IMG/VR virus record: IMGVR_UViG_3300030044_000019
Span: 51,650-71,649 of that record
Reading direction: 5' to 3' (one strand)
DNA: 20,000 nt
Origin: an uncultured virus (IMG/VR IMGVR_UViG_3300030044_000019)
Taxonomy: Duplodnaviria > Heunggongvirae > Uroviricota > Caudoviricetes
Each line of letters begins with the position of its first letter. Position 1 is the stretch's first letter. Both the position numbers and the translations under genes were made by a program. Below, piece by piece: positions 845-14,541 of this stretch. A model generated the notes under the pieces. The model ran no database searches and was not told the origin of the DNA. It saw only the letters and a program-made list of their open reading frames with translations.

Positions 845-860
845 TGCTATCTTTGTGCCA
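845..860 (-). promoter_or_regulatory. sigma-54 -24/-12 promoter P1 (recombinase)
   Basis: TGGCACAAAGATAGCA (GG-N10-GC); perfect IHF consensus AATCAA-TATC-TTA at 865-877; G-N13-C boxes at 904-918 and 923-937. Confidence 0.8.
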
Positions 861-925
861 ACCTTAAGATATTGATTCTATTGGTTATACGTTTTACTAA
901 TCCGTATAACTTTTAGTCAGTTGTC

Positions 926-1135
926 TTATTCTTGTTCAGCATCCACTTCGAATTCAATCACCGTCACATAATCGCATCCATTCTTCCAGTAATGTGTATC
1001 GGCTTCAATCCAACCATCTTCAAAAGCTGTATCTTGGTTGAGTGCTGCGGCCTTTGCTTTACTAAAAGTAGAATAAACACCTACTGCTTGTCCACCCTCA
1101 TATCTTTCACCACGTTCAACAACATACACTTTCAT
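926..1135 (-). CDS. small hypothetical phage protein
   Basis: 69 aa ORF with AGGAG SD; MKVYVV...GVYST...A pattern common in phage early regions. Confidence 0.8.
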   Translation of the reverse strand: MKVYVVERGERYEGGQAVGVYSTFSKAKAAALNQDTAFEDGWIEADTHYWKNGCDYVTVIEFEVDAEQE

Positions 1136-1184
1136 AAAATTCGCTCCTGTATTATTTTAAATTACAATTCGAAATTTGACCCAT
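1136..1184 (-). repeat. 49-bp bipartite element, copy B1
   Basis: plus strand AAAATTCGCTCCTGT...TTGACCCAT, same spacing as the other copies. Confidence 0.7.
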
Positions 1185-1188
1185 ACCT

Positions 1189-1557
1189 CTAGAATTCGAA
1201 CTTTTCACCTTCTGCAGATTCAATTACTTTTCCAGAGCAGACACGCCTATTTCGTATATTTTGTTGTGGATTAACAATCCTACAATTTTCAGGAAGGTAG
1301 TGCCCATTCGAATCGATTCTATCTAACTGATAATGGCGACTATTAGAAATAAAGTCTTCTTGGCTTATTCCTCTTGCCACTAGCTCTCTTTCAAACCACA
1401 CTCTGAAATTATAGATGTCTTCAATCCAGTGAGAACAAACCCTAATGTTTCTGGCGCCGTAATTTTTATAAGAAGTATCAGTTTTCCTGTAACATCTAGC
1501 CATCATCGAATCGTATCTTTTTCCTACGTAATAATTAAAATCTCTTTTTCTTCCCAT
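1189..1557 (-). CDS. HNH-type homing endonuclease-like protein
   Basis: RCY..Y.NYG.R.IRVC..W..F..W...LDRID.NG.Y.PENCR...Q..N phage HNH signature. Confidence 0.75.
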   Translation of the reverse strand: MGRKRDFNYYVGKRYDSMMARCYRKTDTSYKNYGARNIRVCSHWIEDIYNFRVWFERELVARGISQEDFISNSRHYQLDRIDSNGHYLPENCRIVNPQQNIRNRRVCSGKVIESAEGEKFEF

Positions 1558-1558
1558 C

Positions 1559-2650
1559 TTATTCTCCTACACTTGGATTAAAACTAGCAGGTACACTCCA
1601 AGAAGTAGAACCTGCGGCCCAACCGTGTGGTTCAGCCGAACTACAACCAGCCTGCCACGATAGTGTGCGGGTATGAGTAGTGGTATTAGTATTGATTGAA
1701 AACTTACAACCCGATTCGTCTGTATCTTGATAGCTTCCATCTGGAATAAAGGATAGACGAGTGTCTTGCCCAGCCATTGTTTGGGAAAAATCAGCAAGTA
1801 AATCTCCATTGCTAAACAAAATTAGCTCTTCTTTCCATGCGCTTGAAGCTAATCCACACGGCGCTATAAAAGACATAGGAGTGAGTCCAGAATTACCAGC
1901 TGGACCTTGAGGACCTACAGAACCCTGTGATCCAGTAGCTCCGACCAAACCATTGCAAATCACTTTTGGCGTAGAGACTACTCCTGCATTAGTTACGACC
2001 ACCACCTGGCCACCAGTAGAACATTGAGCAGACGTAGCCACTGTAACACTCACCGAAGAACTCGTGCCATTTTGTCCAGAACTTCCGGTAGCACCAACAT
2101 TTCCTTGCAAGCCTTGCTGTCCAACAGCACCATTACATACCAATGTTGTAGATGTAACTGTATCCGATGTCGCATTGTAAAATCCACTATTGGAAGGATC
2201 GGTAAAGGTAATCAGTTGAACACCCCCTACCCCATTGCACGCATTTGGTAGTTGGGTAGCCTGTAGTCCTGCTCCCAAGCCCTGAGAGCCATTTTGTCCA
2301 GCAGTCCCTGCCTGACCAGCAATCCCATTACTAACCGTAGTTGTGGTTCCATCTGGGCATGTAATAGTAGATGCGCCATTCACTTCTGACACCGTACAGT
2401 TTTGTGACTTAGAATTGACCAGTGGGACTGTAAGGCTAATCTCACCACACCCTGATACTACGCTGATAAAGACAGTAAGTGAGATAATTTTTAACATACT
2501 GGTTGCTCCATTTTTGTTAGCTTTTTTGTATATCCGGTTCAATTCCGAGAAAGTAAAATGTCCTGCAATCTGTGTAGCTTTTGCATGTGTTACAGTTCTA
2601 CCCATTTTCTTAACAATCCAATAAATCATAGAGATGTTCTTGTTTTGCAT
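1559..2650 (-). CDS. collagen-like (Gly-X-Y) Cys-repeat putative lipoprotein
   Basis: Three Gly-X-Y runs alternating with C..GG...CNG modules; lipobox VSGC after a hydrophobic stretch starting at Met52 (alternative start 2497 with GGAG). Confidence 0.75.
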   Translation of the reverse strand: MQNKNISMIYWIVKKMGRTVTHAKATQIAGHFTFSELNRIYKKANKNGATSMLKIISLTVFISVVSGCGEISLTVPLVNSKSQNCTVSEVNGASTITCPDGTTTTVSNGIAGQAGTAGQNGSQGLGAGLQATQLPNACNGVGGVQLITFTDPSNSGFYNATSDTVTSTTLVCNGAVGQQGLQGNVGATGSSGQNGTSSSVSVTVATSAQCSTGGQVVVVTNAGVVSTPKVICNGLVGATGSQGSVGPQGPAGNSGLTPMSFIAPCGLASSAWKEELILFSNGDLLADFSQTMAGQDTRLSFIPDGSYQDTDESGCKFSINTNTTTHTRTLSWQAGCSSAEPHGWAAGSTSWSVPASFNPSVGE

Positions 2651-2659
2651 ATATTCTCC

Positions 2660-3142
2660 TTAGAAGTTATAACCAAGTCCAAGCCACGCGTTGCCTCTTA
2701 CTGTAGCGCCAAGCGTTCCTCGAATAGCATCCGAGAAATCTCGTTGAAGCATCAAGCCTACGTCTGGTTGGTAGCTATTGTTAGCTGTGTAAGTTGTACT
2801 AGTGTAGCTAGTAGTCAACTTATTAGGCGTCATCATGCCCACAAGTGAAATGGAGGTTTTCCTTTGGGCTTCCCTGATCACTACAGGTCTAGTTTGTCGA
2901 TGTTGTTGTGGCTGAACGATCGTAACAGTGTTATTAGTAGTTGTGTTGGTTGTGGTATTTGTGATCACGGTGCTAGGCTTTTGCGGCGTTGTAGTAGCCT
3001 TCTTTTTTGGCAATGGACAACCGCAGGATTTAGTCAGTTGCGGATTAGCATGACAAACCGTTGGAGCTTGGCCACATACTTCGTATGCGAAGGCTGATTG
3101 ATTAAGAAGGATTAGACTCAGACCGACAATTACTTTTTTCAT
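2660..3142 (-). CDS. secreted/outer-membrane protein with Thr-rich linker and C-terminal beta-strands
   Basis: Signal peptide MKKVIVGLSLILLNQSAFA; 4-Cys head; T-rich linker; ends WLGLGYNF (beta-signal-like). Confidence 0.6.
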   Translation of the reverse strand: MKKVIVGLSLILLNQSAFAYEVCGQAPTVCHANPQLTKSCGCPLPKKKATTTPQKPSTVITNTTTNTTTNNTVTIVQPQQHRQTRPVVIREAQRKTSISLVGMMTPNKLTTSYTSTTYTANNSYQPDVGLMLQRDFSDAIRGTLGATVRGNAWLGLGYNF

Positions 3143-3177
3143 TATGGACTCCTTTGTTAACTTACATTTCTATATAA

Positions 3178-3193
3178 TGCAACCAAGATACCA
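3178..3193 (-). promoter_or_regulatory. sigma-54 promoter P2
   Basis: TGGTATCTTGGTTGCA; IHF-like AATGAA-TAGT-TTA 3199-3211; G-N13-C boxes 3236-3250 and 3255-3269. Confidence 0.75.
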
Positions 3194-3267
3194 ACTAATA
3201 AACTATTCATTTCAACTATTGAACAAAACCAGACTGAAGAACTTTGATACAGTTGTAGTATACTTAT

Positions 3268-3705
3268 TCACTTGTACAGCTCTAGTTCTTGGTAATATCG
3301 ATACTTATTATTAATATAACAAGGCGTATCACCAAAGACAGACGGAAACATAATACTTACAGGGCAATTATTAGCGTCCACGTCCTTAATATGTTGAAGT
3401 CCCATAGCGCAATGTCCAAGCTCATGAAACACAAGTTGTTCCTTCAGGTCATCGCCTATTTTTGCCCAATAAATGGGATCGATTTGGATAATTCTACTGC
3501 CGTCGTCGTACAAGCTACATTGGCCTACCCTAGGTAGGGTAAGTGAAACAAAACCCGCCGATATGTTGTCAGTTCTAACGCCTATGTATTGTGTGAACTT
3601 AGCAAAATAAGGAACCAGTAGTGGATCTACATGCGCAGGCATTGTAGGTGCGGGTTGTTGACCGCAACCACTTAGCAATAGCAGGAATAAACAAATATAT
3701 CGCAT
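3268..3705 (-). CDS. lipoprotein zinc metallopeptidase (metzincin-like)
   Basis: Lipobox LSGC; HELGHCAMGLQH zinc motif; SIMFP Met-turn; TAATG overlap with the upstream gene suggests start at 3705. Confidence 0.8.
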   Translation of the reverse strand: MRYICLFLLLLSGCGQQPAPTMPAHVDPLLVPYFAKFTQYIGVRTDNISAGFVSLTLPRVGQCSLYDDGSRIIQIDPIYWAKIGDDLKEQLVFHELGHCAMGLQHIKDVDANNCPVSIMFPSVFGDTPCYINNKYRYYQELELYK

Positions 3706-3923
3706 TAAGGCTCCCATTCTTTCAAGTCTTCTTCAGTTACTCTTTTATCTTGAAGAGCTAAGAGAATTTGTTTGGCTCTATTTCGGCGTGCTATAGCCGT
3801 TTGTTTTATATTTGAATTGTCTTTTACTACTAAAAGATCCAGATAGTCCTTATAAAGGGACATTGCGGCTATGAGCACCTTCAAATCCTTTTTTTTCGCG
3901 TAAAGTACTTTTATATGTTTCAT
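3705..3923 (-). CDS. hypothetical protein
   Basis: 72 aa ORF, AAGGG SD, directly downstream of the tRNA. Confidence 0.7.
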   Translation of the reverse strand: MKHIKVLYAKKKDLKVLIAAMSLYKDYLDLLVVKDNSNIKQTAIARRNRAKQILLALQDKRVTEEDLKEWEP

Positions 3924-3940
3924 ATCAATACCCTTAAAAT

Positions 3941-4017
3941 TGGTCCGCCGCCTAGGAATTGAACCTAGGTCAAAGCCTTATAAGAGCCTTTGGAGCGACC
4001 AGCCCCGACCACGGCGG
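3941..4017 (-). tRNA. tRNA-Ile (anticodon UAU) with atypical D-arm
   Basis: Acceptor CCGCCGT/GCGGCGG + A + CCA; T-arm CTAGG-TTCAATT-CCTAG; anticodon stem AGGCT/GGCTT with loop CT-TAT-AA. Confidence 0.85.
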
Positions 4018-4022
4018 TATAT

Positions 4023-4071
4023 AAAATTCACTTCTGTAAATATTTAGTATAATTAGATACGTTTAATCCAC
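4023..4071 (-). repeat. 49-bp bipartite element, copy B2 (5 nt upstream of the tRNA)
   Basis: AAAATTCACTTCTGTAAAT (19 nt identical to 5516-5534)...TTAATCCAC. Confidence 0.7.
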
Positions 4072-4289
4072 CCCTCGATATCCGATTCTCTAAGAAATCT
4101 TTGAAGCCTATCGTAATTTCTTACTCTGAGATTAATTTTATCACGATTTCTATCACAGTAGTTTTTATTTCTAATTTTATCGCATAATTTACATTTTAAA
4201 GACAAGCCATCTTTTTTCCTGCTTTTGTCGGACCCAAATTCAGTTTTGTCTAACCATACGTTACAAATCTGACATAACTTTTTCTTCAT
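4053..4289 (-). CDS. zinc-ribbon protein (CxxC...CKLC), resembling the N-terminus of phage HNH proteins
   Basis: CQIC...EF..D..RKKDGL..KCKLC; AGGAGA SD supports start at 4289. Confidence 0.7.
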   Translation of the reverse strand: MKKKLCQICNVWLDKTEFGSDKSRKKDGLSLKCKLCDKIRNKNYCDRNRDKINLRVRNYDRLQRFLRESDIEGWIKRI

Positions 4290-4305
4290 ATAATTCTCCT
4301 TTTCA

Positions 4306-4707
4306 TTACCGCACCACATAATAACGGCCATTGGAAAATGTGTAACAGTTATGTGTCAAAGCCTCAGCTTCATTCACTTCCGTAAACTGTCCAATCTTCT
4401 CCGAATTGCCTGCTACATAATGCAACACCGCTGTATCGTCATTGTGAACTTCGAGCACGCTTTCTTGGTTAAACAGTGCACCCAAGTTCAAAGCGATCGA
4501 GAGATTCTCGGCGTGGTCCTTGGCGCTATCGGCATAGAGCATGAAAGTGGATTCAGCTACATTCTTATAAACTCCCTTGACTACTGCGAAATTGCTACCT
4601 TCGCGCTTAAGCAGATTAAGAGCCTTGATATGATTTTGGTGATTGATACTGTCAGACTTGCCAGAAAGTTCAGCGGATACGAATACTTTATTTGATTTAG
4701 TCAACAT
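4306..4707 (-). CDS. S-adenosylmethionine lyase (T3 gp0.3 SAMase-like), anti-restriction
   Basis: Motif order VSA, N..NH, G.Y..E, QESVL, A.L.Y, G.F.EV, CYT...RYYV matches T3 SAMase as I recall it. Confidence 0.8.
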   Translation of the reverse strand: MLTKSNKVFVSAELSGKSDSINHQNHIKALNLLKREGSNFAVVKGVYKNVAESTFMLYADSAKDHAENLSIALNLGALFNQESVLEVHNDDTAVLHYVAGNSEKIGQFTEVNEAEALTHNCYTFSNGRYYVVR

Positions 4708-4739
4708 TTGTTTTTCTCCTTGGTTACGGTACTAAGTAA

Positions 4740-4755
4740 TGCTATCTTCATGCCA
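4740..4755 (-). promoter_or_regulatory. sigma-54 promoter P3 (SAM lyase)
   Basis: TGGCATGAAGATAGCA; IHF-like AACCAA-GCAG-TTA 4760-4772; G-N13-C boxes 4799-4813 and 4817-4831. Confidence 0.8.
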
Positions 4756-4818
4756 CCGCTAACTGCTTGGTTTTATTACTTCGTGACAATTTTTGTCTGG
4801 TTATTATTTAGACAGTGT

Positions 4819-5244
4819 TTAGTTGTTGGTCAGTAACCTCCAAATAATAAAGTAGTGGGTTAAATGATGCGCCAGCTGATCAGTGCCTAATGCGAACCAA
4901 AAATAAGTATTTCCTTTCAAAGCGTCTTGATCATTGGCTTGTACAGCAGCTGCGTAAGTATCCTTTGTAAGAGCCTTCCATCGTCCACCAAGCGTAGGAC
5001 TAGCCTTGATCCTGTCCACCACAAAGTGCACTGACATATCTAGTAGCGCCAGCCAAAAAGCACTTTTAGGTTTAAAGTATGAGGCAATTAAAAATGTACC
5101 CATACCGTGTACAGCTACATGCGCTAATAGCGGTAATATAAAGTTAGGAGACTTCTTAAACTTGCCCAGCATATACTGTGTCTGCAAAGGAAAGTCTGCG
5201 AGAAAATGTTTGGCTTGATAAAGAATAAGCAATAAGTATACCAT
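4819..5244 (-). CDS. DUF3307-like membrane protein
   Basis: HFLADFPLQ, H.AVH, HFVVD, DQLAH motifs with hydrophobic helices. Confidence 0.8.
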   Translation of the reverse strand: MVYLLLILYQAKHFLADFPLQTQYMLGKFKKSPNFILPLLAHVAVHGMGTFLIASYFKPKSAFWLALLDMSVHFVVDRIKASPTLGGRWKALTKDTYAAAVQANDQDALKGNTYFWFALGTDQLAHHLTHYFIIWRLLTNN

Positions 5245-5256
5245 TAACCATCTCCT

Positions 5257-5505
5257 TTAACTATTTTTCCACGAGACGCACCAATCAGACAGGGGCTCTT
5301 TTGTTACTTTGTACCCTTTTGCTGTCAACTCTTCCATTATTTTGGGGAAAGTATTGAAATATAAAGATAAAAAATAGATCGAGGTTTTACCTTGGCTAAT
5401 AGCCACTTGGATTCCGCCAACAACGCGATCTGTATAGCATTTGAGTTCATTAAGTTCCGAAACTCTTTTAGCTTCTTTCGCATCTAGTAGTTCTTTTAAA
5501 AGCAT
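5257..5505 (-). CDS. hypothetical protein
   Basis: GGAGG SD before ATG 5505; ends ...L..KGYKV......VSW. Confidence 0.75.
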   Translation of the reverse strand: MLLKELLDAKEAKRVSELNELKCYTDRVVGGIQVAISQGKTSIYFLSLYFNTFPKIMEELTAKGYKVTKEPLSDWCVSWKNS

Positions 5506-5515
5506 ATTTCCTCCC

Positions 5516-5564
5516 AAAATTCACTTCTGTAAATTACAACAATTTATAATTCTTTTCGATCCAC
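5516..5564 (-). repeat. 49-bp bipartite element, copy B3
   Basis: AAAATTCACTTCTGT...TCGATCCAC. Confidence 0.7.
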
Positions 5565-5911
5565 GTAGCTATAGCCTTAAAACTAGCGCCTTCATCGTTT
5601 ATATGGGCTAGATCAACGGACATAAATTTGCGGGTGCCGCTTCTAACAGTGATAGTTTTACTAATATTATTAATGTCATCCCGAATTTTACCACTGGCAG
5701 ATTTAATGTCGCACTTTTCTTGCATGCCAGGGAGATCTAGTATCGCTCTTCCTCGGATCAACTCCTTGCTATAACCGTTAATATCGGCGAGCACTCCTAA
5801 GCAACAATGCTCAATTCCAGCACCCGGATTTTGGCATAACTTACTAGCCCCCTGCTTATACTTCCCGCTCCTCAAAGCCTTAACCCAGCGCATCGCGTTC
5901 TTCTTTAGCAT
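5534..5911 (-). CDS. conserved phage hypothetical protein
   Basis: WVKALRSGKYKQG..L....CCLGVL...ND.G.SF..IA.WIE pattern; AGGAG SD. Confidence 0.8.
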   Translation of the reverse strand: MLKKNAMRWVKALRSGKYKQGASKLCQNPGAGIEHCCLGVLADINGYSKELIRGRAILDLPGMQEKCDIKSASGKIRDDINNISKTITVRSGTRKFMSVDLAHINDEGASFKAIATWIEKNYKLL

Positions 5912-5926
5912 ATCATTCTCCTTTGT

Positions 5927-5975
5927 TAAAAACACTTTTATAAATTCCTACAGACACATGTTAAAATTGACCCTG
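5927..5975 (-). repeat. 49-bp bipartite element, copy B4
   Basis: TAAAAACACTTTTAT...TGTTAAAATTGACCCTG. Confidence 0.75.
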
Positions 5976-5979
5976 GGGA

Positions 5980-6489
5980 CTAGGCTGCTTGCAATTTTAG
6001 ATCCTTACCAAGGCTCAGTAGGTATGTGGTTGCGGCCTTAGCAGCTTTTCTGGCTTTTACTCTATCGGCTAAAGGATATTCTTTTAAGTACGCACGTAAA
6101 ACCTTGGCATAATGTTTTTTGTCAAATCCAAGCTCGATAGCAAGATAATACATACCATATTGAGCGATAGCCTCTTCTGTGTGGTATGTTTGTGTGTTTA
6201 TACGCGCTATTTTTCTCGTAACGCTTTTTCGATTGAGCCTCTTCTCATGGCCCGTCCAATGAATGAGTTCGTGCAAAAGGGTTACGTTGATATTCCAAGG
6301 CAATGTTCCTTTATAAGTATCAAGCGTGTTAATTGCTATAACATCAAACCGAGAGCTATACGCGCCTGTTGAATAACCGAGCATTCTTTTAGACATAGTG
6401 TTTTGGACTTTATAGAAAGGAACAACGTGCGCGCCGCTCGATTTAATTAATCTCTGTACTTTGGCATGGATTTTTTTAAACTGTTGCAT
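5980..6489 (-). CDS. zincin-like metallopeptidase domain of the ArdC C-terminal (MPTase) type
   Basis: TLLHELIHWTGHEKRLNR...Y..EE.IA motif characteristic of ArdC/polyvalent-protein MPTase. Confidence 0.8.
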   Translation of the reverse strand: MQQFKKIHAKVQRLIKSSGAHVVPFYKVQNTMSKRMLGYSTGAYSSRFDVIAINTLDTYKGTLPWNINVTLLHELIHWTGHEKRLNRKSVTRKIARINTQTYHTEEAIAQYGMYYLAIELGFDKKHYAKVLRAYLKEYPLADRVKARKAAKAATTYLLSLGKDLKLQAA

Positions 6490-6499
6490 ATTGCCTCCT

Positions 6500-6548
6500 A
6501 AAAATCACTATTGTGTTAATCCAGATATATGTGTCAAATTTAACCTAT
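6500..6548 (-). repeat. 49-bp bipartite element, copy B5
   Basis: AAAAATCACTATTGT...TGTCAAATTTAACCTAT. Confidence 0.8.
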
Positions 6549-6557
6549 AGGGCCTGC

Positions 6558-7160
6558 TCAATGTTGGCATGGATCGGTATTGGTCCTAGTCGCATTATCG
6601 TCTGTTACTGGCGTAGGAATAACTTGCGTCGGCGTGGGAGTCGGTACCGGACTAGGTAGCGTCAAAGTCAATGCTTGATTGCAAGCGGTTACAGCGCCAC
6701 TAGCCGTCAAGTAAACACTATTGAGAGTAATGCTACTAGTTTTAGGTCCCAAGACATTTCGCAGTGCTTGGGTTGTCAACACTAAGTCGCCAAAGTAAAC
6801 TGTTATGCCGTTGTTCACTTGGATAACCTTGTAATTGCTAAACGTCAAGCCTTTGACTGTTAGTTTATAATTAGGCAATGCCGTGCCGGCTGCTATCGTC
6901 TTGTTAGGTAGCGTCAAAGTCAATGGGATATCAGTCAAAGCAGGGTCAAATGTGACTCCCTGGAATGCACTGGTACAACCTGCGTCATTACTGACATTCC
7001 CGACTAATGAACTCGCAAGCGTACTAGTTTCTAAACGGAAGTCGGCATAGTTTTGGGTTAGGCTAGAATTGACAGTCTGTTGCGCTAATGCCAAAGTTGC
7101 AGCCGATACTAAACCTAGAGCAACCATACACTCGATTAAAGAAAATCCTTGGTTATTCAT
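6558..7160 (-). CDS. type IV prepilin-like protein
   Basis: Class III signal MNNQG/FSLIE with Glu5 and hydrophobic helix; Cys-containing beta domain; Pro/Thr tail. Confidence 0.85.
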   Translation of the reverse strand: MNNQGFSLIECMVALGLVSAATLALAQQTVNSSLTQNYADFRLETSTLASSLVGNVSNDAGCTSAFQGVTFDPALTDIPLTLTLPNKTIAAGTALPNYKLTVKGLTFSNYKVIQVNNGITVYFGDLVLTTQALRNVLGPKTSSITLNSVYLTASGAVTACNQALTLTLPSPVPTPTPTQVIPTPVTDDNATRTNTDPCQH

Positions 7161-7171: not shown

Positions 7172-7220
7172 CAAAATCACTTTTGTGTGTCAGCTCAAAC
7201 CTATGTCAAAATTGACCTAT
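7172..7220 (-). repeat. 49-bp bipartite element, copy B6
   Basis: CAAAATCACTTTTGT...TGTCAAAATTGACCTAT, followed by ATCCC. Confidence 0.8.
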
Positions 7221-7224
7221 ATCC

Positions 7225-7767
7225 CTAGGCTGCTTTAGTGTTAACCCAAAATACATTCCCGTGACGGTCTTGTTTAAACACATTAGGATAGTATCCTGAC
7301 TTTTCCATGTATTGCTCAATAAGGTTATTCCTTTGAGTATCATCATCGTATTCATGATTTTGAATAACCCATTTTCCCGAATCCGTATCTAATACATCGC
7401 CGTCGTCATTGATAATCAAGTTACCACATTCCAACGTGTAAACCGTCCCTACTTCCCAGTCAATATAAGCGCATTCCAAGTCATTAACATGCGCTTCAAA
7501 TGCTTCGCGTGCCTCTGTAGGGATTTGGTCTAGGGCACTGCGCACGTATGCCCAACGTCTAATCTCACCGTGGCTATCAGTATCATACTCTTTAGTATCG
7601 TTCAAAGCCTTAAGTGTGTCAGTTACTACGCCAGACCAAGTTGATTCAAATGCTTTGACGTATTCGTTTCGCAATTTGTTTTGAATGACTGACGATTTTT
7701 CATTGTAATCCTTGGTCAGTGTGGTTAGTTGATTCTCAAGTTTTGCAATCGTATTAGATTTAATCAT
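7225..7767 (-). CDS. hypothetical protein with acidic C-terminal half
   Basis: AAGGA SD before ATG 7767; ends KAA. Confidence 0.8.
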   Translation of the reverse strand: MIKSNTIAKLENQLTTLTKDYNEKSSVIQNKLRNEYVKAFESTWSGVVTDTLKALNDTKEYDTDSHGEIRRWAYVRSALDQIPTEAREAFEAHVNDLECAYIDWEVGTVYTLECGNLIINDDGDVLDTDSGKWVIQNHEYDDDTQRNNLIEQYMEKSGYYPNVFKQDRHGNVFWVNTKAA

Positions 7768-7778: not shown

Positions 7779-7827
7779 GAAATTCACTTTTAGTAATCAT
7801 TGAAGACATGTGTCAAAATTGACCTAT
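7779..7827 (-). repeat. 49-bp bipartite element, copy B7
   Basis: GAAATTCACTTTTAG...TGTCAAAATTGACCTAT, followed by ATCCC. Confidence 0.8.
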
Positions 7828-7982: not shown

Positions 7983-8229
7983 TTTGATCTCCCTGGACTA
8001 TTTCAAATGACAGGGAATATTTGAAAGGTAGGAATTCGCCGCTAGCCGCTTGATAACTCCCATACAATTCATAGCCGGTGCCTTCCGGATGCATTTCGGC
8101 TTTGTTACACTCCAATAGCTTAGCGCCTAGTAATTGTTGAATTTCAGACCAATTCATTATCTCACCGTCAAATATGCTTTTAGTTCTGTAATCTTTACGT
8201 TCAAGCCAAACTTTATATTGACCATTCAT
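7975..8229 (-). CDS. hypothetical protein
   Basis: 84 aa ORF, AGGAG SD. Confidence 0.75.
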   Translation of the reverse strand: MNGQYKVWLERKDYRTKSIFDGEIMNWSEIQQLLGAKLLECNKAEMHPEGTGYELYGSYQAASGEFLPFKYSLSFEIVQGDQNA

Positions 8230-8231
8230 AT

Positions 8232-8396
8232 TTAACTCCTATCTAACTCAGCGCATGCTAGTCTTATATTATCCGCTTTATCTTTAAAATCTTTACGCTC
8301 CCGGTAATTAGAGCATTCAAAAGCTAATTTTTCAAGATAATCCGCTCTATCCCGAGCCGCTTCCAATACTTCATTTAGAGCATTTTGTTTATTCAT
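8232..8396 (-). CDS. small hypothetical protein (54 aa, MNKQNALNEVLEAARDRADY...)
   Basis: Read by hand; AAGGA SD; fills the gap. Confidence 0.7.
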   Translation of the reverse strand: MNKQNALNEVLEAARDRADYLEKLAFECSNYRERKDFKDKADNIRLACAELDRS

Positions 8397-8405
8397 ATTA
8401 ATCCT

Positions 8406-8999
8406 TTACAGTTTTTTAAGAGCTTTTGCAATAGCCTTTACAAGCTTTTGTTTCAATTCACTTTTGGTTTTGAACTTGATTTCTTGCTCCAAATCAGTTT
8501 TGTTACTCCAACGAAAATAGGGCGCGTCGTTGTCCCATCCCGAGTGTACCAGTAGCACGCCATTCCCTTCATACATAAGCCGAATTCTAAAAGCTTGACC
8601 ACAATAGTCGTTATTGAGAGTGTTGTCTAGGGCTTCGTAAAGATCATTTAAATGACTTTCATTGTTAGGATCTAATTCAGGGTTATCAGCAAGTGTATCC
8701 TTCCAAATACTTTCATATTCTTCTTCAATTCTATTCTCAATGCTAGTGCTTGTATGTTCTCCGGAACCATGTAAAAACCCTGTAGTCGTAAAGGCTATAA
8801 AGTCGGCACCTCCTCTATTTCGATCATGCGCCCAAAAACCATCTCTTGATTCGAACTCTAGTGGCTCAACTACGGTATTATAAGCGTCAAATGGTATATC
8901 CAAATCCTCCAAACTTTCCAAGAGGATATCCTGATAGCCCTTTGTTACCACGTTGTCATATTCTTTATTAGTTTTAGTCAGTTTAGCTAGCTTGCTCAT
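8406..8999 (-). CDS. hypothetical protein with acidic core
   Basis: 197 aa ORF, AAGGA SD. Confidence 0.8.
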   Translation of the reverse strand: MSKLAKLTKTNKEYDNVVTKGYQDILLESLEDLDIPFDAYNTVVEPLEFESRDGFWAHDRNRGGADFIAFTTTGFLHGSGEHTSTSIENRIEEEYESIWKDTLADNPELDPNNESHLNDLYEALDNTLNNDYCGQAFRIRLMYEGNGVLLVHSGWDNDAPYFRWSNKTDLEQEIKFKTKSELKQKLVKAIAKALKKL

Positions 9000-9011
9000 T
9001 TTTATTTCCTT

Positions 9012-9209
9012 TCAATCATTTACGATTTGAATACGACTATTTAAAATGCTTCCAAGTTCTAATTCTAGTTGTGGCGTTTCAAGTGTGTCATAATAAGCTT
9101 CTTCGGAATCATTGAGTATTTCCTGTAGTTCTTCCTTCGAAAAACTATTGAATTTTTTACTTTCAATGAGCAATTGAATCGCTTTAGAACGACTAATTAA
9201 TTGTGTCAT
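9012..9209 (-). CDS. small acidic hypothetical protein
   Basis: AGGGG SD before ATG 9209. Confidence 0.7.
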   Translation of the reverse strand: MTQLISRSKAIQLLIESKKFNSFSKEELQEILNDSEEAYYDTLETPQLELELGSILNSRIQIVND

Positions 9210-9210
9210 A

Positions 9211-9906
9211 TTAAACCCCTTTCGCGATTGATACAGACATGTACATAGGGAAATTGTTAAGTCCACCATAAGTTTTAAACCAACTAGCGTAGCCTGACAA
9301 CTTGTTTTTTACATAGACAGGGGCTTTTTCATTGAGAGAAAAACTCAAACGTTTATTTTGTTTACACCATGACTGACGATGCCCTTTTTCTCTCAAGTAT
9401 TCTTTAAAAGCAAGAGATTGACCCCTAGCACTACCCTGAGTTACAACTACAGGGATATTCAAATGCTTAACCAAACTAAAGACGCGTGGTTCAGCGCGAC
9501 CAAACATTTCAACACTGTCAAACTCGACACAACTAAACTTATGACCAATTGCAGCTAACCTTTCAACCCCTGCAATTAAATCCCCTTCGATTACTTGACA
9601 CTTGAGACCTTTTAGCTGGACAAAGCGACGCAGTTTAGCCGCAAGTTTAGGGCACCATTCAAATACCACGATATTAGCGTCTTGAAATCCCATTTTGCGA
9701 TAACGGATAATGTGTCTCAATAGACCGCTTGGATGCCCGACCAAAATTGCGCAGTGTGTAGGACTATTTTTATTCAATCGTCTAAGGATTGGTCCGATAA
9801 TTTTGTCTTCATAAGATTCGCTAGTTGTTTTTCCTAGCGAGTTCGTGGACTTGTTAGCAAACGACGATTTATGTGTCTTAGACAGGATATCGAATTTATA
9901 AGCCAT
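9211..9906 (-). CDS. putative class I SAM-dependent methyltransferase-fold protein (divergent)
   Basis: Strand pattern AILVG / IVVFE / QVIEGD / FSCVEFD like Rossmann MTase beta1-beta4; no canonical GxGxG. Confidence 0.5.
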   Translation of the reverse strand: MAYKFDILSKTHKSSFANKSTNSLGKTTSESYEDKIIGPILRRLNKNSPTHCAILVGHPSGLLRHIIRYRKMGFQDANIVVFEWCPKLAAKLRRFVQLKGLKCQVIEGDLIAGVERLAAIGHKFSCVEFDSVEMFGRAEPRVFSLVKHLNIPVVVTQGSARGQSLAFKEYLREKGHRQSWCKQNKRLSFSLNEKAPVYVKNKLSGYASWFKTYGGLNNFPMYMSVSIAKGV

Positions 9907-9948
9907 TGTAAAACTCCTTTGTTATTGTTTCGTTATGCATCTAAGTAA

Positions 9949-9964
9949 TGCATGGGGAATGCCA
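9949..9964 (-). promoter_or_regulatory. sigma-54 promoter P4
   Basis: TGGCATTCCCCATGCA; IHF-like TATTCA-ATAG-TTA 9969-9981; boxes 10009-10023 and 10028-10042. Confidence 0.8.
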
Positions 9965-10044
9965 TAGCTAACTATTGAATATAGTTCAGCATACCATTTT
10001 AGCATGGTGTATAGCGCGTTATCAAATGTATAATGCTTAGTCGA

Positions 10045-10443
10045 TTAGTTCAGTCTATAAATGAAATACTCACCTTGCTCATGTTCTTCGAAGTCGTATT
10101 GACCAATGAAATGCCCGCGTCCATCCGATAATACAGCGTCGTCAACGAAATGGGCTTTGTCATTGAGTAGCTTAAGCAATACAGGGTTAGCATCCTCGCA
10201 AAGCTCTTGTATTTTTTGAATACAACTTTCGTCAAGGTCTGATATATGAGCTTCCAAAAACGATGCGCGGAATGCCCACACAGAGTCAAGGATAGCCTTG
10301 GTTGCATATTCGTCGGCTTCATTGTCTGTTAGGACTAGATATTCTTCGCGTCCATTTTCAAATGCATTATCGTCGTATCTCATGCATTCTACTTCGTTTA
10401 CTTCGCATTCCAAAAACCGTGCCAATGCTTCAAGTTTATTCAT
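10045..10443 (-). CDS. acidic phage protein, DNA-mimic/anti-restriction candidate
   Basis: By hand count about 31 D/E vs 11 K/R in 132 aa; DGRGHF..YD.EE...YFIYR tail. Confidence 0.6.
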   Translation of the reverse strand: MNKLEALARFLECEVNEVECMRYDDNAFENGREEYLVLTDNEADEYATKAILDSVWAFRASFLEAHISDLDESCIQKIQELCEDANPVLLKLLNDKAHFVDDAVLSDGRGHFIGQYDFEEHEQGEYFIYRLN

Positions 10444-10457
10444 ATCAATCCTTTCGA

Positions 10458-10658
10458 TTAAGCAGCCTTCCGATATTCAATGCGTTCAATAGCCACGATT
10501 ACATTGTGAACGTCAAGCGCCGCATATAACCCTAGTAGTCGTTGCAAGGCTTCATTTTTGGCGTCATAATCCCCTAGCTTGACAGCGCTAGCAAGTTCTA
10601 AGCGTACGTTATCAATAGCCTTCAAGACTTCGATTTCATTTGTCAATTTGGTGCCCAT
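10458..10658 (-). CDS. hypothetical protein
   Basis: 66 aa, AGGAG SD, ends KAA. Confidence 0.75.
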   Translation of the reverse strand: MGTKLTNEIEVLKAIDNVRLELASAVKLGDYDAKNEALQRLLGLYAALDVHNVIVAIERIEYRKAA

Positions 10659-10660
10659 AA

Positions 10661-10807
10661 TTATCTCCTACCCAGTATTTGAATGCGTAACGCCGCTTGC
10701 ATAGCTTCTTTCAATGTGGGAATCCAGGTAGTCATTTGAACATAACCGAAATTTGGATAGATCAAAACCCTATAACCCCTACCATCTGGCTCAATTACAG
10801 TCTTCAT
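10661..10807 (-). CDS. small hypothetical protein (48 aa, MKTVIEPDGRGYRVLIYP...)
   Basis: Read by hand; AGGAG SD; first gene after P5. Confidence 0.7.
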   Translation of the reverse strand: MKTVIEPDGRGYRVLIYPNFGYVQMTTWIPTLKEAMQAALRIQILGRR

Positions 10808-10846
10808 ATTCGTTAGCTCCTATTCGTTCGTTATGTAGATAGGTAT

Positions 10847-10862
10847 TGCATAGGGAATGCCA
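10847..10862 (-). promoter_or_regulatory. sigma-54 promoter P5
   Basis: TGGCATTCCCTATGCA; box GTTTAAGTATTAGCC 10915-10929 plus a weaker one at 10934-10948. Confidence 0.8.
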
Positions 10863-10951
10863 AAACACTAACCCGCAGTCATTGGGTTATTTAATAGGTT
10901 AATGAATAGGAGATGTTTAAGTATTAGCCAGTGTGTAGGGCGATATACAAC

Positions 10952-11176
10952 TTATAGCTTTTCTCCAATGATATCAGTAATGAATGAAATCAATTGTGGG
11001 GAATAACCCCTAGCTTCCAAATCGTATTTGATATCCTCAATGACTAGGTTAACTTCTAAGTCATAGGCCAATGAGCTAGGCCTACCCTCGCACCGATAAC
11101 ACCGATCCTTATCAAAGTATCGTGCATAACCATTCATGGCACCATTACATTTAAAGCATGTAAAATTAAATCCCAT
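10952..11176 (-). CDS. small zinc-finger protein (CxxC...CxxC)
   Basis: CFKC...CYRC; AGGGG SD before ATG 11176. Confidence 0.7.
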   Translation of the reverse strand: MGFNFTCFKCNGAMNGYARYFDKDRCYRCEGRPSSLAYDLEVNLVIEDIKYDLEARGYSPQLISFITDIIGEKL

Positions 11177-11209
11177 ACCATAACCCCTTTCAGTGATACA
11201 CAATGTATG

Positions 11210-11755
11210 TCAATCCTTTCGAGTTACAGCTTTGACGCCTATTTTAATCAAGTCTTTATAAGTGGCATACAAGGATATGTTTAAACCCATTTCGACCGCC
11301 TGTTTTTTAGTAACTTTTAACCATTCTTTATGGGTTTTTAGTTGACATCCTATGGATACATTTTGAGGTGTTACGGTTATAGGGTAACTTTCACAATGAA
11401 ATACATAGCAATGCTTCTGTAAAGACACCCGAGCATCCCCAGACACCCATGCATTCCCAGACACCCTTGCATTCCCATACACCTGAGCATTCCCAGACAC
11501 CCGAGCATTCCCATACACCTGAGCATTCCCAGACACCTGAGCATTCCCAGACACCCATGCATTCCCAGACACCCATGCATTCCCAGACACCCATGCATTC
11601 CCAGACACGTCTAGATGTTTTTCACTCTCAATGTATCCGCCTAAAGTACCCGCTATAATCGAGCCGATATTAATTAATGCCTGAATTCTATACAGCGTCC
11701 TACCATCCCAGGATAATTTAGTGTCTTCTTTAATTAACTTATATTTTTTATTCAT
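11210..11755 (-). CDS. hexapeptide-repeat (VSGNAW) beta-helix phage protein
   Basis: KYKL...TLYRIQAL...G.LGGYIE.E..L followed by 10 hexapeptide repeats. Confidence 0.85.
   Translation of the reverse strand: MNKKYKLIKEDTKLSWDGRTLYRIQALINIGSIIAGTLGGYIESEKHLDVSGNAWVSGNAWVSGNAWVSGNAQVSGNAQVYGNARVSGNAQVYGNARVSGNAWVSGDARVSLQKHCYVFHCESYPITVTPQNVSIGCQLKTHKEWLKVTKKQAVEMGLNISLYATYKDLIKIGVKAVTRKD
11423..11608. repeat. 18-bp tandem repeat, about 10 copies (coding)
   Basis: AGACACCYRWGCATTCCC units. Confidence 0.95.
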
Positions 11756-11901
11756 ATAATCCTTTCAATGAAACACAATGCTAGTAAAACCGAATAGATA
11801 TAACTCATGTGGATCGGAGTTACCCGCCAAATAGAATCCAATGCAATTCATATAATCGATTTGGTCACACACTGACTTGAACACGACACACTGCGTAGAA
11901 T

Positions 11902-12054
11902 TTAACACACTAGACTCCCTTCAACAATAGCAACCCCGTCAATTTCGGAACCAATTTGAGCAAGGATATATGCTAGGTCATACTTATGGAATACTCGTTC
12001 AGCTATAGGCCCTTCAATCAAAAAATCATATTCAAATACTGTAATTTTATTCAT
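11902..12054 (-). CDS. small hypothetical protein (50 aa)
   Basis: Read by hand; AAGGA SD. Confidence 0.6.
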   Translation of the reverse strand: MNKITVFEYDFLIEGPIAERVFHKYDLAYILAQIGSEIDGVAIVEGSLVC

Positions 12055-12072
12055 ATAATTATCCTTTTAAGT

Positions 12073-12198
12073 TTAAAGAGCTTCACAATAGTCTACTAAA
12101 TCTAATCCAATTAGATCTAATAGAATATCAATATCTGTAGAATCACAGTATAATTCAAATCTTATACCGGTATATAGTTTTACTTCATAGGTATTCAT
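12073..12198 (-). CDS. small acidic hypothetical protein (41 aa)
   Basis: Read by hand; GAGG SD; ATGA overlap with the upstream ORF. Confidence 0.6.
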   Translation of the reverse strand: MNTYEVKLYTGIRFELYCDSTDIDILLDLIGLDLVDYCEAL

Positions 12199-12314
12199 TG
12201 GAATATCCTCAATACAACCAAGGTAACCGTGATCAATCCTAAATACCACGTAGTTACAAGGCTATCTAGCCTATTCAATTTGGCATCGTTTTTAGTTTCA
12301 AAGTAGACTCTCAT
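12195..12314 (-). CDS. small membrane peptide (39 aa)
   Basis: Read by hand; AAGGA SD; hydrophobic C-terminal half; first gene after P6. Confidence 0.6.
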   Translation of the reverse strand: MRVYFETKNDAKLNRLDSLVTTWYLGLITVTLVVLRIFQ

Positions 12315-12348
12315 ATATTTCCTTTCAATCGGTTATGGTACTACTTAT

Positions 12349-12364
12349 TGCATGTGTTAGGCCA
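12349..12364 (-). promoter_or_regulatory. sigma-54 promoter P6
   Basis: TGGCCTAACACATGCA; boxes GGTTAAGGATTAGAC 12406-12420 and a weaker one at 12425-12439. Confidence 0.75.
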
Positions 12365-12437
12365 AAACGCTAGCCCGAAACTATTGGGTTATTATACTGA
12401 ATAGTGGTTAAGGATTAGACATGTGTATAAGCGATAG

Positions 12438-12824
12438 TTACCTAACAGCTTTCAAAGCCTTAGCCACATACTCCAATAGATAGACTTTGGGCGCAAACCA
12501 ACTAGTTAGAAATGTGTGATAGTTGCATCCAATAGTTAAAAGTACAGGTACAAGCGACACAATCGTCACAATAATAGGCAAAAAATACACGTCGTCATTG
12601 AAATTTAAGCCCCCGTTTTTATTGGGATAAGTTTCGGCCTGTTTAGCTAGCCGCCACACAGATACAACTATCCCAGTTAATAAGAGAGGTATCAACCAAA
12701 GTAAACTTGATTCAATACGCGCCAAAGTAATCAATTGCTTAGCAATATCAGGAGCTTGGGCCAAGACAAAATCCTGAGTGTTATTGAGGATACCGAGTAG
12801 TTTTTTGAGTAGTTCGTCAGTCAT
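12438..12824 (-). CDS. two-helix membrane protein
   Basis: Two hydrophobic segments; DFVL.QAPD...Q and W.APKVYLLEY patterns; AGGAG SD before 12824. Confidence 0.75.
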   Translation of the reverse strand: MTDELLKKLLGILNNTQDFVLAQAPDIAKQLITLARIESSLLWLIPLLLTGIVVSVWRLAKQAETYPNKNGGLNFNDDVYFLPIIVTIVSLVPVLLTIGCNYHTFLTSWFAPKVYLLEYVAKALKAVR

Positions 12825-12840
12825 TTGATTTCTCCTTTGG

Positions 12841-13059
12841 TTACTTAATCCTGTCACACGCCGCTTGCAATTTGAGCATATCCGCTTCCATCTCCCGAGC
12901 CGTCTTCATATCCTCAAAGGTAGCCGCCACTATAGCAGATACCCTAGAATCGCGGTATAGCTTTTCCAATACCCTCCCAGACTCAAAGGTTAGATATACA
13001 CCTCCCATGCGATGCGTATCGGCTCCTAAACGCAATTCGTAGCGTATCACAGTATACAT
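12841..13059 (-). CDS. hypothetical protein
   Basis: 72 aa ORF, GAGG SD. Confidence 0.7.
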   Translation of the reverse strand: MYTVIRYELRLGADTHRMGGVYLTFESGRVLEKLYRDSRVSAIVAATFEDMKTAREMEADMLKLQAACDRIK

Positions 13060-13062
13060 GCT

Positions 13063-13287
13063 TTAACCCTCTTGACTATATCGATCAAATACATGGTTAG
13101 CCGTAGTTATAGAATCGCCTTGATATAGATATTGTTCATTCAGCGCACCAAATGACTCCCTTGACTCAACATGGACCACATAGCGGTTATTGGTATCCAA
13201 GGTCATTCGGTAGCGGTATATCGTGCCATTAACTAGGATAGCTGGACTAGACTTTAAAACAGTATGGCCATTGAGTAATACAGTCAT
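13063..13287 (-). CDS. hypothetical protein
   Basis: GAGG SD before ATG 13287. Confidence 0.7.
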   Translation of the reverse strand: MTVLLNGHTVLKSSPAILVNGTIYRYRMTLDTNNRYVVHVESRESFGALNEQYLYQGDSITTANHVFDRYSQEG

Positions 13288-13297
13288 ATAGTTACCT

Positions 13298-13501
13298 CTA
13301 TTCAATTACAATGCGGGAACCAAAAATCACATATTCCGAGCCACCAAGCGATACAGCCGGTTTTTCAAAATGGGCATGGCAATATCTAATAAATTCATTA
13401 GCTGAATCCAGGTTAGGCATAGAAATTTCGTCGTCTATTGAGATACCCGTCAAAAGGCCTGTAATGAAATACTTAGAGAACTTTACTTTAAATGTGGTCA
13501 T
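13298..13501 (-). CDS. hypothetical protein
   Basis: 67 aa, GAGG SD; first gene after P7. Confidence 0.75.
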   Translation of the reverse strand: MTTFKVKFSKYFITGLLTGISIDDEISMPNLDSANEFIRYCHAHFEKPAVSLGGSEYVIFGSRIVIE

Positions 13502-13527
13502 AATCGTTACCTCTTATCTATATACTT

Positions 13528-13543
13528 AGCAAGTGGTAGGCCA
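13528..13543 (-). promoter_or_regulatory. sigma-54 promoter P7
   Basis: TGGCCTACCACTTGCT; boxes at 13583-13597 (weak) and GTATGATACTTAGGC 13602-13616. Confidence 0.75.
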
Positions 13544-13610
13544 ATGCCAAATAGCGTATATTCGAATTAAGCTCATTTAACTGGCTATTGGTTTAATAGC
13601 CGTATGATAC

Positions 13611-13934
13611 TTAGGCATGTTTAGGGCACCATGTGGAATGGTTCGCAAAACCGTGTTTTTCCATACCGCATTCGCAGACTTTCAGTTTGATCTCAAAGCT
13701 TTTAGTACTGTGATGACCGAAGTCAATCGATATGTAGCCTGGACAATTCAGACCGTTAATTGGAGCTGTATACAATACAAGTTCAGATTCGTCAAAACCA
13801 CTTGACTTTTTTCCATTGGTCCATTTAACACTGTAATAGTAGTTACCTAAATATAAACTTTTGCCTACAATAAAACCAATATCATGTTGCGTAGCTCCAA
13901 CTTTACATACGCAGTCATTCAATTCAAATGCCAT
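13611..13934 (-). CDS. SH3/KOW-like protein with C-terminal CxCG..H..WCP zinc motif
   Basis: F..ND.V...G.I....Y.VKW...ESEL, then CECG...HSTWCPK. Confidence 0.65.
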   Translation of the reverse strand: MAFELNDCVCKVGATQHDIGFIVGKSLYLGNYYYSVKWTNGKKSSGFDESELVLYTAPINGLNCPGYISIDFGHHSTKSFEIKLKVCECGMEKHGFANHSTWCPKHA

Positions 13935-13938
13935 ATAT

Positions 13939-14016
13939 TCATTCCCTTTCTATCCAAGCTATTACAATTACAGGCGAAATTAACAATAGTGTCCAAAACG
14001 ACATATAAATGAGCAT
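13939..14016 (-). CDS. very small hydrophobic peptide (25 aa)
   Basis: Read by hand; AGGGA SD; fills the gap. Confidence 0.4.
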   Translation of the reverse strand: MLIYMSFWTLLLISPVIVIAWIERE

Positions 14017-14019
14017 GAG

Positions 14020-14142
14020 TTATTCCCTTGCCCGCGCGATAACCACTAGATGCGGGTTAAGGCAAGCATTGCAAATACCGTGCTTAAGCCAGTAGGGTTT
14101 AAAATATACGTTACATTTAGAGCAAGCTAGTTTTTTGGTCAT
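14020..14142 (-). CDS. mini zinc-finger protein (40 aa, CSKC...CNAC)
   Basis: Read by hand; AGGAG SD. Confidence 0.65.
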   Translation of the reverse strand: MTKKLACSKCNVYFKPYWLKHGICNACLNPHLVVIARARE

Positions 14143-14143
14143 A

Positions 14144-14296
14144 TTAAAATCTCCTCGTACGCGTGTATAGATATCCAATGCCTAATACGCATCCTATGGT
14201 AACAATGTAACTAGAAGCTTTGACAACGCTATTAGAGCGGGTTGTGTGTGGTTTAGTCCAGAGAGCGAATTTACTAGCTTTAAATAGTTTAATCAT
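14144..14296 (-). CDS. small basic protein (50 aa), probably near-leaderless
   Basis: Read by hand; ATG about 3 nt after the predicted P8 start site; no SD. Confidence 0.55.
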   Translation of the reverse strand: MIKLFKASKFALWTKPHTTRSNSVVKASSYIVTIGCVLGIGYLYTRTRRF

Positions 14297-14309
14297 GGTA
14301 GTAACCTAT

Positions 14310-14325
14310 TGCAGGCATAGTGCCA
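14310..14325 (-). promoter_or_regulatory. sigma-54 promoter P8
   Basis: TGGCACTATGCCTGCA; boxes at 14369-14383 (weak) and GGCTAATACTTAGAC 14388-14402. Confidence 0.8.
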
Positions 14326-14541
14326 AATGAAAAACAATGCGAATTCAAGGTTATCAGTCTAAGCGATTGTATAGTGCGCTAGATACTGGCTAATACTTAG
14401 ACGGTTACATAACGCTGAATGGCCAATAGCGTCGATTAGAGGGGATATGTGAGAGTGAGGGGAAATAAGACAAACCTTATGGAATGCATAAAACAAACAT
14501 TATGGGATAGCTCATTACAGGACTTGAGCGCGTTAGCGGGA

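Follow-up and report, generated by a model that had tools for sequence, protein, structure and literature searches.

Nine predicted sigma-54 promoters of an Mx1-related phage share a box-plus-core layout with Bdellovibrionota chromosomes

RNA polymerase carrying RpoN (sigma-54) stays closed at a −24/−12 promoter until an activator acts. The closest described systems are the bacterial sigma-54 promoters that depend on integration host factor (IHF), among them Klebsiella nifH with NifA, glnHp2, Pu and pspA (PMC2709558, in excerpt). In Pseudomonas phage YuA one sigma-54-like promoter, P015, stands among mostly sigma-70-like and phage-specific ones (PMC10914365, in excerpt). Here we describe nine −24/−12 sites in a 20,000-nt stretch of DNA (the window), positions 51,650 to 71,649 of the uncultured virus record IMGVR_UViG_3300030044_000019 (G000). 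Like the IHF-dependent promoters of bacteria, these sites combine a predicted upstream activator site and a −24/−12 core with GG-N10-GC and, at three of the nine, an IHF site between; unlike them, they come in nine copies in 14 kb, their activator is not encoded alongside, and the proximal box is closer to the core, ending ~42 nt before the TGG. YuA is similar in being a lytic phage that uses a host sigma-54-type promoter, and differs in that the excerpted text names no enhancer or host regulon for P015. The promoter type is textbook; its use by this phage and the match to an undescribed Bdellovibrionota enhancer are new. We consider it likely that the nine sites are host sigma-54 promoters carried by a phage related to Mx1; the most probable host is a predator of the Bdellovibrionota.

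The core pattern TGGY-N8-WGCW was scanned over the window, and placement was judged against a curated list of open reading frames (ORFs). The original prediction had reported eight −24/−12 sites, and all eight were recovered, intergenic and on the minus (coding) strand, with the claimed distances to the next start codon: 845–860 (26 nt, before a tyrosine-recombinase-like gene), 3178–3193 (35 nt, before 2660–3142), 4740–4755 (32 nt, before an S-adenosylmethionine (SAM) lyase gene), 9949–9964 (42 nt, before 9211–9906), 10847–10862 (39 nt, before 10661–10807), 12349–12364 (34 nt, before 12195–12314), 13528–13543 (26 nt, before 13298–13501) and 14310–14325 (13 nt; the first promoter of the gene block). 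As it had also stated, 15447–20000 holds no match. Further matches lie inside genes at 1937 and 5228, and a non-coding one that it had overlooked, 14738–14753 on the minus strand, is the ninth site, located in 1.15 kb of non-coding DNA with the next start 441 nt away. The raw window count (11 against 4.87 expected) was reached by 4 of 200 shuffles, only a modest excess. In contrast to this count, the nine intergenic minus-strand matches at spacer 8 were never equalled when the intergenic DNA was dinucleotide-shuffled 2000 times (mean 0.29); at spacers 4–7 and 9–13 there were no such matches at any length, and at spacer 8 the plus strand had none. Because placement, and not the raw count, is decisive, we regard the observation as confirmed. 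Seven of the nine cores stand 26–42 nt before a start codon with a ribosome site, the exceptions being 14310 and 14738. The ATG after the 14310 core falls only ~4 nt past the predicted transcription start, so the 50-aa ORF there is either leaderless or no gene.

Each core is part of a larger promoter, in which one or two 17-bp palindromes (approximately TGTCTAA-N3-TTMKACA) lie 40–62 nt upstream and several sites have an IHF site. The palindromes and IHF sites, which the original prediction had not noted, were read on the minus strand. At 845, an IHF consensus without mismatch (865–877) ends 4 nt before the TGG and is followed by tandem palindromes at 903–938 (903–919, score 16.0; 922–938, score 8.4; gaps 42 and 61). 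At 3178, an IHF-like site with one mismatch (3199–3211, gap 5) precedes the tandem pair 3235–3270 (3235–3251, score 9.7; 3254–3270, score 7.9), and at 4740 the same arrangement is seen with an IHF-like site at 4760–4772 (one mismatch, gap 4) and the pair 4798–4832 (4798–4814, score 11.5; 4816–4832, score 11.6). The tandem palindromes of 9949 span 10008–10043 (10008–10024, score 5.1; 10027–10043, score 11.8), with two mismatches in the best IHF match, and those of 12349 span 12405–12440 (12405–12421, score 10.7; 12424–12440, score 6.5), with no IHF match. The palindrome of 10847, also without an IHF match, is placed one helical turn further out (10914–10930, gap 51, score 12.7). A single palindrome belongs to 13528 (13601–13617, gap 57; score 8.1, the lowest of the eight), and one each was found for 14310 (14387–14403, gap 61, score 13.7) and 14738 (14816–14832, gap 62, score 8.9).

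The window is the end of the 71.6-kb record G000, whose DNA is present in peat metagenomes. A second record of 150,858 bp (G001) carries an identical (100%) SAM-lyase gene. Together the two records cover ~159.3 kb, or ~96% of the phage genome if the longest contig on record carrying these proteins (165,790 bp) is taken as the yardstick, with ~6.5 kb unseen. The phage is thus estimated at ~166 kb and is related to Mx1: among cultured phages the nearest by capsid is Myxococcus phage Mx1 (OR576727.2, 52.6%), and IMG/VR holds 65 capsid relatives at 56–100% identity. Eleven relatives fetched whole and two fetched in part were compared, together with Mx1. The left 14 kb of the window is a minus-strand block of small genes, many of them without a known family in profile searches; its label 'early' is one that we infer from gene content.

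The box was surveyed in 51 promoters picked by eye after the sequences had been seen, same-genome copies among them sharing ancestry; the gaps were 41–44 nt (24 cases), 52–55 nt (6) and 85–86 nt (2), against 1 of 139 coding controls, and appear to step by about one helical turn. A palindromic matrix built only from 43 promoters of relatives found a box scoring >8 at 8 of 8 window sites, with a summed score reached in 0 of 1000 shuffles, and the ninth site, 14738, also has a box above 8. Boxes accompanied 9 of the 19 sigma-54-like matches in G000, and none of those in the other 88 kb of G001 (0/11), Mx1 (0/13), G011 (0/28) or G013 (0/8). The IHF consensus WATCAR-N4-TTR (PMC2709558, in excerpt), with at most one mismatch, ended exactly 4 nt before the TGG at 23 of 107 non-coding and 0 of 112 coding matches across the clade, a count that leaves out Mx1, G011 and G013. 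In its strict form, TGGCAY-N6-TGCA, the core occurred 67 times, clustered, in 12 of 18 long relatives (reversed control, 6), and was absent from G011, G013, G014, G015, G017 and G018. Spacer DNA has diverged between phages, and core, IHF site and boxes keep their sequence and phase. Most gene families of the early region are common to at most 3 of 12 records; because the layout is kept in relatives while the genes are swapped, we take the promoter to be the conserved unit. Mx1 resembles the phage in size, in GroEL and DNA polymerase III alpha, in a helicase followed by a sigma-like gene and in a long small-gene block. It differs in that gene-facing sites at spacer 8 numbered 3 against 1–3 at other spacers, none of its 13 matches has a box, and its host belongs to another phylum. 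A Myxococcus-type wiring was rejected, Mx1 lacking the cassette.

Judged from the DNA alone, the feature shows every mark of an enhancer-dependent sigma-54 promoter except an IHF site at all positions. The expectation that these are RpoN-type promoters requiring an activator is supported by a full enhancer layout that relatives keep. The source of the activator had been left as host or phage. Neither PF00158 (activator) nor PF04552 (RpoN) gave a match in G000, G001 or 29 relatives, 16 of which are at least 90% complete, and Pfam scans of 229 ORFs of this phage found no RpoN and no sigma-54 activator. Since neither gene turned up in the phage records searched, a host-encoded activator is most likely, and the alternative is narrowed accordingly; that the sigma-54 promoters are fired by a host activator is very probable. 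Stand-alone Fis-type helix-turn-helix (HTH) genes (L353–L359) are present in 6 of 18 phage records (G003, G005, G006, G009, G014 and G015), this phage not being among them. Their products need not act on the boxes, because two of the six records have no strict sigma-54 motif. No named activator was matched to the box sequence in our searches. A PilR-type name for the box (TGT-N11-ACA) was dropped, the string not being found in the literature searched.

We then compared the layout with bacterial chromosomes. The tandem-box-plus-core pattern retrieved 20 stretches in IMG/VR and 24 matches in 185,579 prokaryote genomes, namely 8 in Bdellovibrionota, 8 in bacilli and 8 in others, with mean phage-matrix scores of 23.0, 15.8 and 14.0, respectively. 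Roughly one species in 100 belongs to the Bdellovibrionota. One box together with a core was found in 94 of 401 Bdellovibrionota genomes, against 6 of 401 for a control with the box one base longer, and in the genus of G107 a looser pattern matched 31 of 41 genomes. In the hosts the consensus reads TGTCTAAAATTTAGACA, the phage and host matrices are in agreement, and one host box is identical letter for letter to the G007/G019 box. The eight bacilli loci, which we take to be Bacillus RocR/SigL promoters of the rocA, rocD and putB type, precede genes for ornithine aminotransferase, P5C and proline dehydrogenase and permeases. They are alike in having tandem 17-bp boxes 40–44 nt before a sigma-54 core, and differ in their TGCAAA-type inner box, lower phage-matrix score and metabolic targets (arginine/proline catabolism). 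Because the pattern retrieves these tandem-box loci, they serve as a positive control.

By a crude rule, 52 of 62 genes downstream of host sites look exported, against 22 of 94 controls. Among the targets of the host box-plus-core promoter, an exported protein with DUF7844 plus Lnb_N recurs (L225–L227, L229, L240). In the order of G033 (L263–L271), 6 of 9 loci of a second sigma-28-like gene, which lies outside the flagellar cluster, have the layout with tandem boxes upstream (the paralogue was assigned with a quick sigma tree); the layout was found at 0 of 10 flagellar fliA loci and 0 of 5 rpoD loci. This second sigma-28-like gene under sigma-54 is a possible sigma cascade. Flagellar fliA, or the attack-phase regulon, was rejected as the host target; the gene is the second paralogue, and attack-phase promoters lack the core. 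All 5 Bdellovibrionota genomes tested have rpoN, and 11 of 11 have 8–23 activators per genome. B. bacteriovorus has rpoN (PMC3464611, in excerpt) and IHF (bioRxiv 2025.09.24.678257, in excerpt). For the phage's prepilin-type gene, the top three Atlas clusters (0.95, 0.92, 0.92) are commonest in Bdellovibrionota; sequence searches with IMPDH, Rrf2 and the prepilin, and an Atlas search with the metallopeptidase, gave no host signal. We consider it likely that the host is a member of the Bdellovibrionota that shares the phage's enhancer. The same predicted box-plus-core layout in phage and Bdellovibrionota chromosomes is new here. The literature searched, mostly outside subscription papers and preprint supplements, contained nothing linking phage sigma-54 promoters to a host regulon, and neither a phage sigma-54 regulon nor a sigma-54 motif for Bdellovibrio prey-entry genes (including PMC12316311, PMC12622784, PMC13689555, PMC5430801 and bioRxiv 2025.09.24.678257, all in excerpt).

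These results suggest the following order of events. Host RpoN polymerase would bind TGGCAY-N6-TGCW, a motif seen at the sites, and stay closed, as is established for such promoters. A host enhancer-binding protein would then bind the one or two 17-bp palindromes seen ~70–105 nt before the start. Where its site is present (3/9 here, 23/107 in the clade), host IHF would bend the DNA between box and core. Once the activator had opened the promoter, transcription of the block of small genes, the SAM lyase among them, would follow. The phage would thereby have joined a host regulon of mostly exported proteins, and the host activator, possibly one firing on prey entry, probably decides when the phage block switches on. 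With the whole gene block under one host activator, the phage would have handed its start signal to host state. Several points weigh against this reading. Start sites and timing are predictions from sequence. An IHF match within one mismatch is present at only three of the nine window sites (845, 3178 and 4740) and is absent or weak at the other six. The boxes are closer to the core than the usual enhancer, which lies 100–140 bp from −12 (PMC2709558, in excerpt), and their survey was hand-picked as described. A family search can miss divergent phage proteins, the phage sigma having escaped one such search, and the ~6.5 kb of unseen genome could hold an activator gene. The host was assigned only from the prepilin Atlas taxa and the enhancer match, and the nearest cultured phage, Mx1, infects Myxococcus.

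In the genus of G107, the recurring and best-conserved target is an ExbB-ExbD-ExbD (aglR-aglV) operon, which fits Bd0420-0419-0418 of B. bacteriovorus by order, annotation and its 149-aa second gene. In B. bacteriovorus these genes belong to the predatosome operon Bd0412–Bd0420; they are up 5–8-fold on prey entry (PMC2797640, in excerpt) and near silent in attack and growth phases (PMC3627812, in excerpt). The likeness to the predatosome is thus an aglR-aglV-ExbD operon of the genus with the same box-plus-core layout; the excerpt of PMC2797640 names no sigma factor, motif or activator for the set, and the link is ours. The 1.5 kb upstream of each of 25 other ExbB-family loci, some of them operon-internal, yielded no sigma-54 core, and by eye no TGGCAY-N6-TGCW was seen among 140 attack-phase promoters. 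An SLT target was dropped as a counterpart of Bd3575, the neighbours being different, and no B. bacteriovorus counterpart was mapped for the RNase H neighbour target (L295 family). Three targets were mapped for the prey-entry test (aglR operon yes, Bd2839 weak, leuB no), too few for a decision; the chance that the host regulon is the prey-entry programme we put a little short of even. The host regulon points toward gating of the phage block by host developmental state, as the original prediction had thought possible, and such gating may apply.

The strongest alternative differs from the preferred reading only in the trigger: the host activator would respond to the general condition of the cell (onset of growth, envelope stress or nutrients) and not to prey entry. 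We regard it as possible, on the doubtful side. A leuB-like gene with a box and a weak core has as its counterpart Bd1264, a growth gene that rises 1.3-fold on entry and 5.6–6.8-fold in prey-free growth; the counterpart mapped by position to Bd2839 rises only 1.3–1.4-fold on entry; and the layout was found at 0 of 8 DacB loci in 5 genomes. Many Bdellovibrionota lineages are not known as predators. DacB genes are classic prey-entry genes (PMC2797640, in excerpt). The entry-linked rise and silence elsewhere of the aglR-aglV operon counterparts, and the missing core at other ExbB-family loci and at attack-phase promoters, argue against a general trigger.

A host search with one phage HTH protein led to a single-copy activator family with one match each in 62 of 121 genomes (E 1e-12) and a nearly invariant helix of the LG(I/V)T(I/V/L)KTLYNKLH type in 32 of 32 loci read. 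The Bdellovibrio member (351–352 aa), a sigma-54 activator by domain, adjoins a recombinase gene, like Bd3063, which is up 2.1–2.2-fold on prey entry (t-test 0.073; PMC2797640, in excerpt). In 12 GAF-type members of the family, 32 boxes lay at the gene's own start (0.96 expected); 16 Bdellovibrio-type members had 1 (1.1 expected) and 3 others had none. The GAFTGA loop, required for acting on sigma-54 (PMC11839083, in excerpt), is intact (GAFTG/GSFTG) in Bdellovibrio-type and order-of-G033 members and lost or degenerate in the 12 box-bearing members. In the GAF-AAA-HTH regulators without the loop (L362, L363, L387, L388, L390–L392, L395–L399), the boxes lie over the gene's own ribosome site and first codons; these regulators may act to repress the regulon. 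No box scored >12 next to 30 other activator genes, and none of the 12 readable ones had a box >8 upstream. The phage HTH proteins were not accepted as evident copies of the Bd3063 family: of 7 scored over the whole domain, 2 were clearly nearer to that family, 2 were nearer to other activators and 3 were about level. With this partial support, the Bd3063 family is a tentative candidate for the regulon's activator.

In its most far-reaching form, which we offer only as a speculation with the odds somewhat against it, a clade of large predator phages has wired its first genes to the prey-entry switch. A host activator (candidate: the Bd3063 family) would fire both the invasion programme and the phage; a phage in a starved, non-dividing hunter would wait until its host is inside prey, and in some relatives a lone DNA-binding domain would shut the circuit. 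If true, the phage cassettes would reveal the master enhancer of prey invasion. Since the activator's box is readable in the DNA and leads on to host genes, prey-entry regulation of Bdellovibrio becomes testable in a laboratory strain, and the box would be a host-prediction marker for a large group of uncultured phages. A second question is opened, namely how predator phages time their growth in a three-member system; reportedly, in work of the 1970s, bdellovibrio phages grew only in such a system.

Alternatively, the sites might form a decoy array that chiefly soaks up host RpoN polymerase and activator and damps the host regulon, phage transcription being secondary. Some relatives have extra sites on both strands in gene-poor stretches (G005 has 16 strict matches, of which 11 point forward and 5 in reverse), the start nearest to the ninth window site is 441 nt away, and the stand-alone Fis-type HTH proteins of six records could compete at boxes. 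Against these stand the 8 of 9 window sites that lie on the coding strand 13–42 nt before a gene and keep box and IHF site at fixed distances, and the small sink that nine copies per genome would be before replication; we consider a decoy unlikely.

Less likely still is that the motif is read by a phage factor, either the phage's own sigma-70-family protein or an unrecognised activator acting with host RpoN. The phage does encode a 348-aa sigma-70-family protein that shares 35% identity with the 'putative sigma factor' of Mx1, part of its genome is unseen, and most of its small genes have no family. However, Mx1 has a sigma homologue without the cassette, GG-N10-GC with IHF sites and palindromes is the RpoN layout, identical boxes at identical distance precede host genes in host loci that look uninfected, and a phage factor would itself need to be made first. 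In spite of the clear duplicates 10847/12349 (62 nt shared at 73%) and seven near-identical cassette copies in G019, it is very improbable that the sites are functionless repeats left by the duplication and recombinational spread of one cassette, since the spacers have diverged between phages, the sequence and phase of core, IHF site and boxes are kept, and bacterial chromosomes share the layout.

Other transcription signals bear on the claim that early transcription runs on sigma-54 rather than sigma-70. A second motif, motif B (GGTYAAWWTT-N26-AGTGWWTTT), heads five genes of the block just before their ribosome sites and is unrelated to the sigma-54 cassettes; the original prediction had not noted it. 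On the minus strand it occurs at 5928–5972 (before 5534–5911), 6501–6545 (before a zincin/anti-restriction-like gene), 7173–7217 (before the prepilin-type gene) and 7780–7824 (before 7225–7767), with a weak copy at 1137–1181. It recurs with exact spacing in G002, G003, G004, G007 and G010, and gave 2 matches against 4 control matches in five host genomes. It was rejected as a sigma-70 promoter, as TTGACA is not kept in relatives and the spacing is unfit, and may be an operator or a promoter for the phage sigma. Within the window, generic scans for sigma-70 promoters and for terminators were at chance level; strict sigma-70 promoters were found at 13 places outside the block (5 in G000 beyond the window, 8 in the remainder of G001). 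Because of motif B, the sigma-70 promoters elsewhere and the phage's own sigma, the sigma-54-only view is weakened: it holds only for the 14-kb block, with motif B on five of the block's genes.

The genes behind the promoters include a 178-aa tyrosine recombinase with the catalytic domain only (282–818, minus strand; PF00589, E 4e-20; homologues in G002 and G003), which sits behind the best-formed cassette, and the SAM lyase of anti-restriction type (4306–4707, minus; PF23780, E 9e-23) directly behind the 4740 site. Motif B lies upstream of the zincin/anti-restriction-like gene (5980–6489, minus; family match) and of the gene for a 200-aa prepilin-type protein (6558–7160, minus; PF07963), a protein that could enter or jam host type IV pili. 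A tRNA-Ile with anticodon UAU (3941–4017, minus) would decode AUA directly. An 18-nt tandem repeat at 11389–11640 encodes a YdcK-type beta-solenoid, and assemblies break at this repeat.

The ninth core stands in a 1.15-kb gene-free stretch (14297–15446) with a hairpin upstream of the core and a 10-nt tandem repeat at 14542–14578; G003 has a similar hairpin-plus-core. Since contigs of several relatives start or stop beside their promoter clusters, this stretch may hold an end of the genome or an origin. Contig depth showed no doubling that would indicate a long terminal repeat across the block, contigs being a poor test of this. Elsewhere the same phage encodes an Acb2/Tad1 sponge domain (L009:18134-18352), a PagL-like protein (L008:10179-10664), an Rrf2 regulator (L008:11188-11523), an mCpol domain protein (L002:10961-12637) and an ice-binding-like domain (L002:782-2617). 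The early regions of relatives hold host-like regulators: a lone receiver domain (L134:15076-15411; 3 records), CarD (L131:4028-4483), a PhaR-type DNA-binding domain (L130:14980-15282; 4 records) and a cold-shock protein (L194:421-651).

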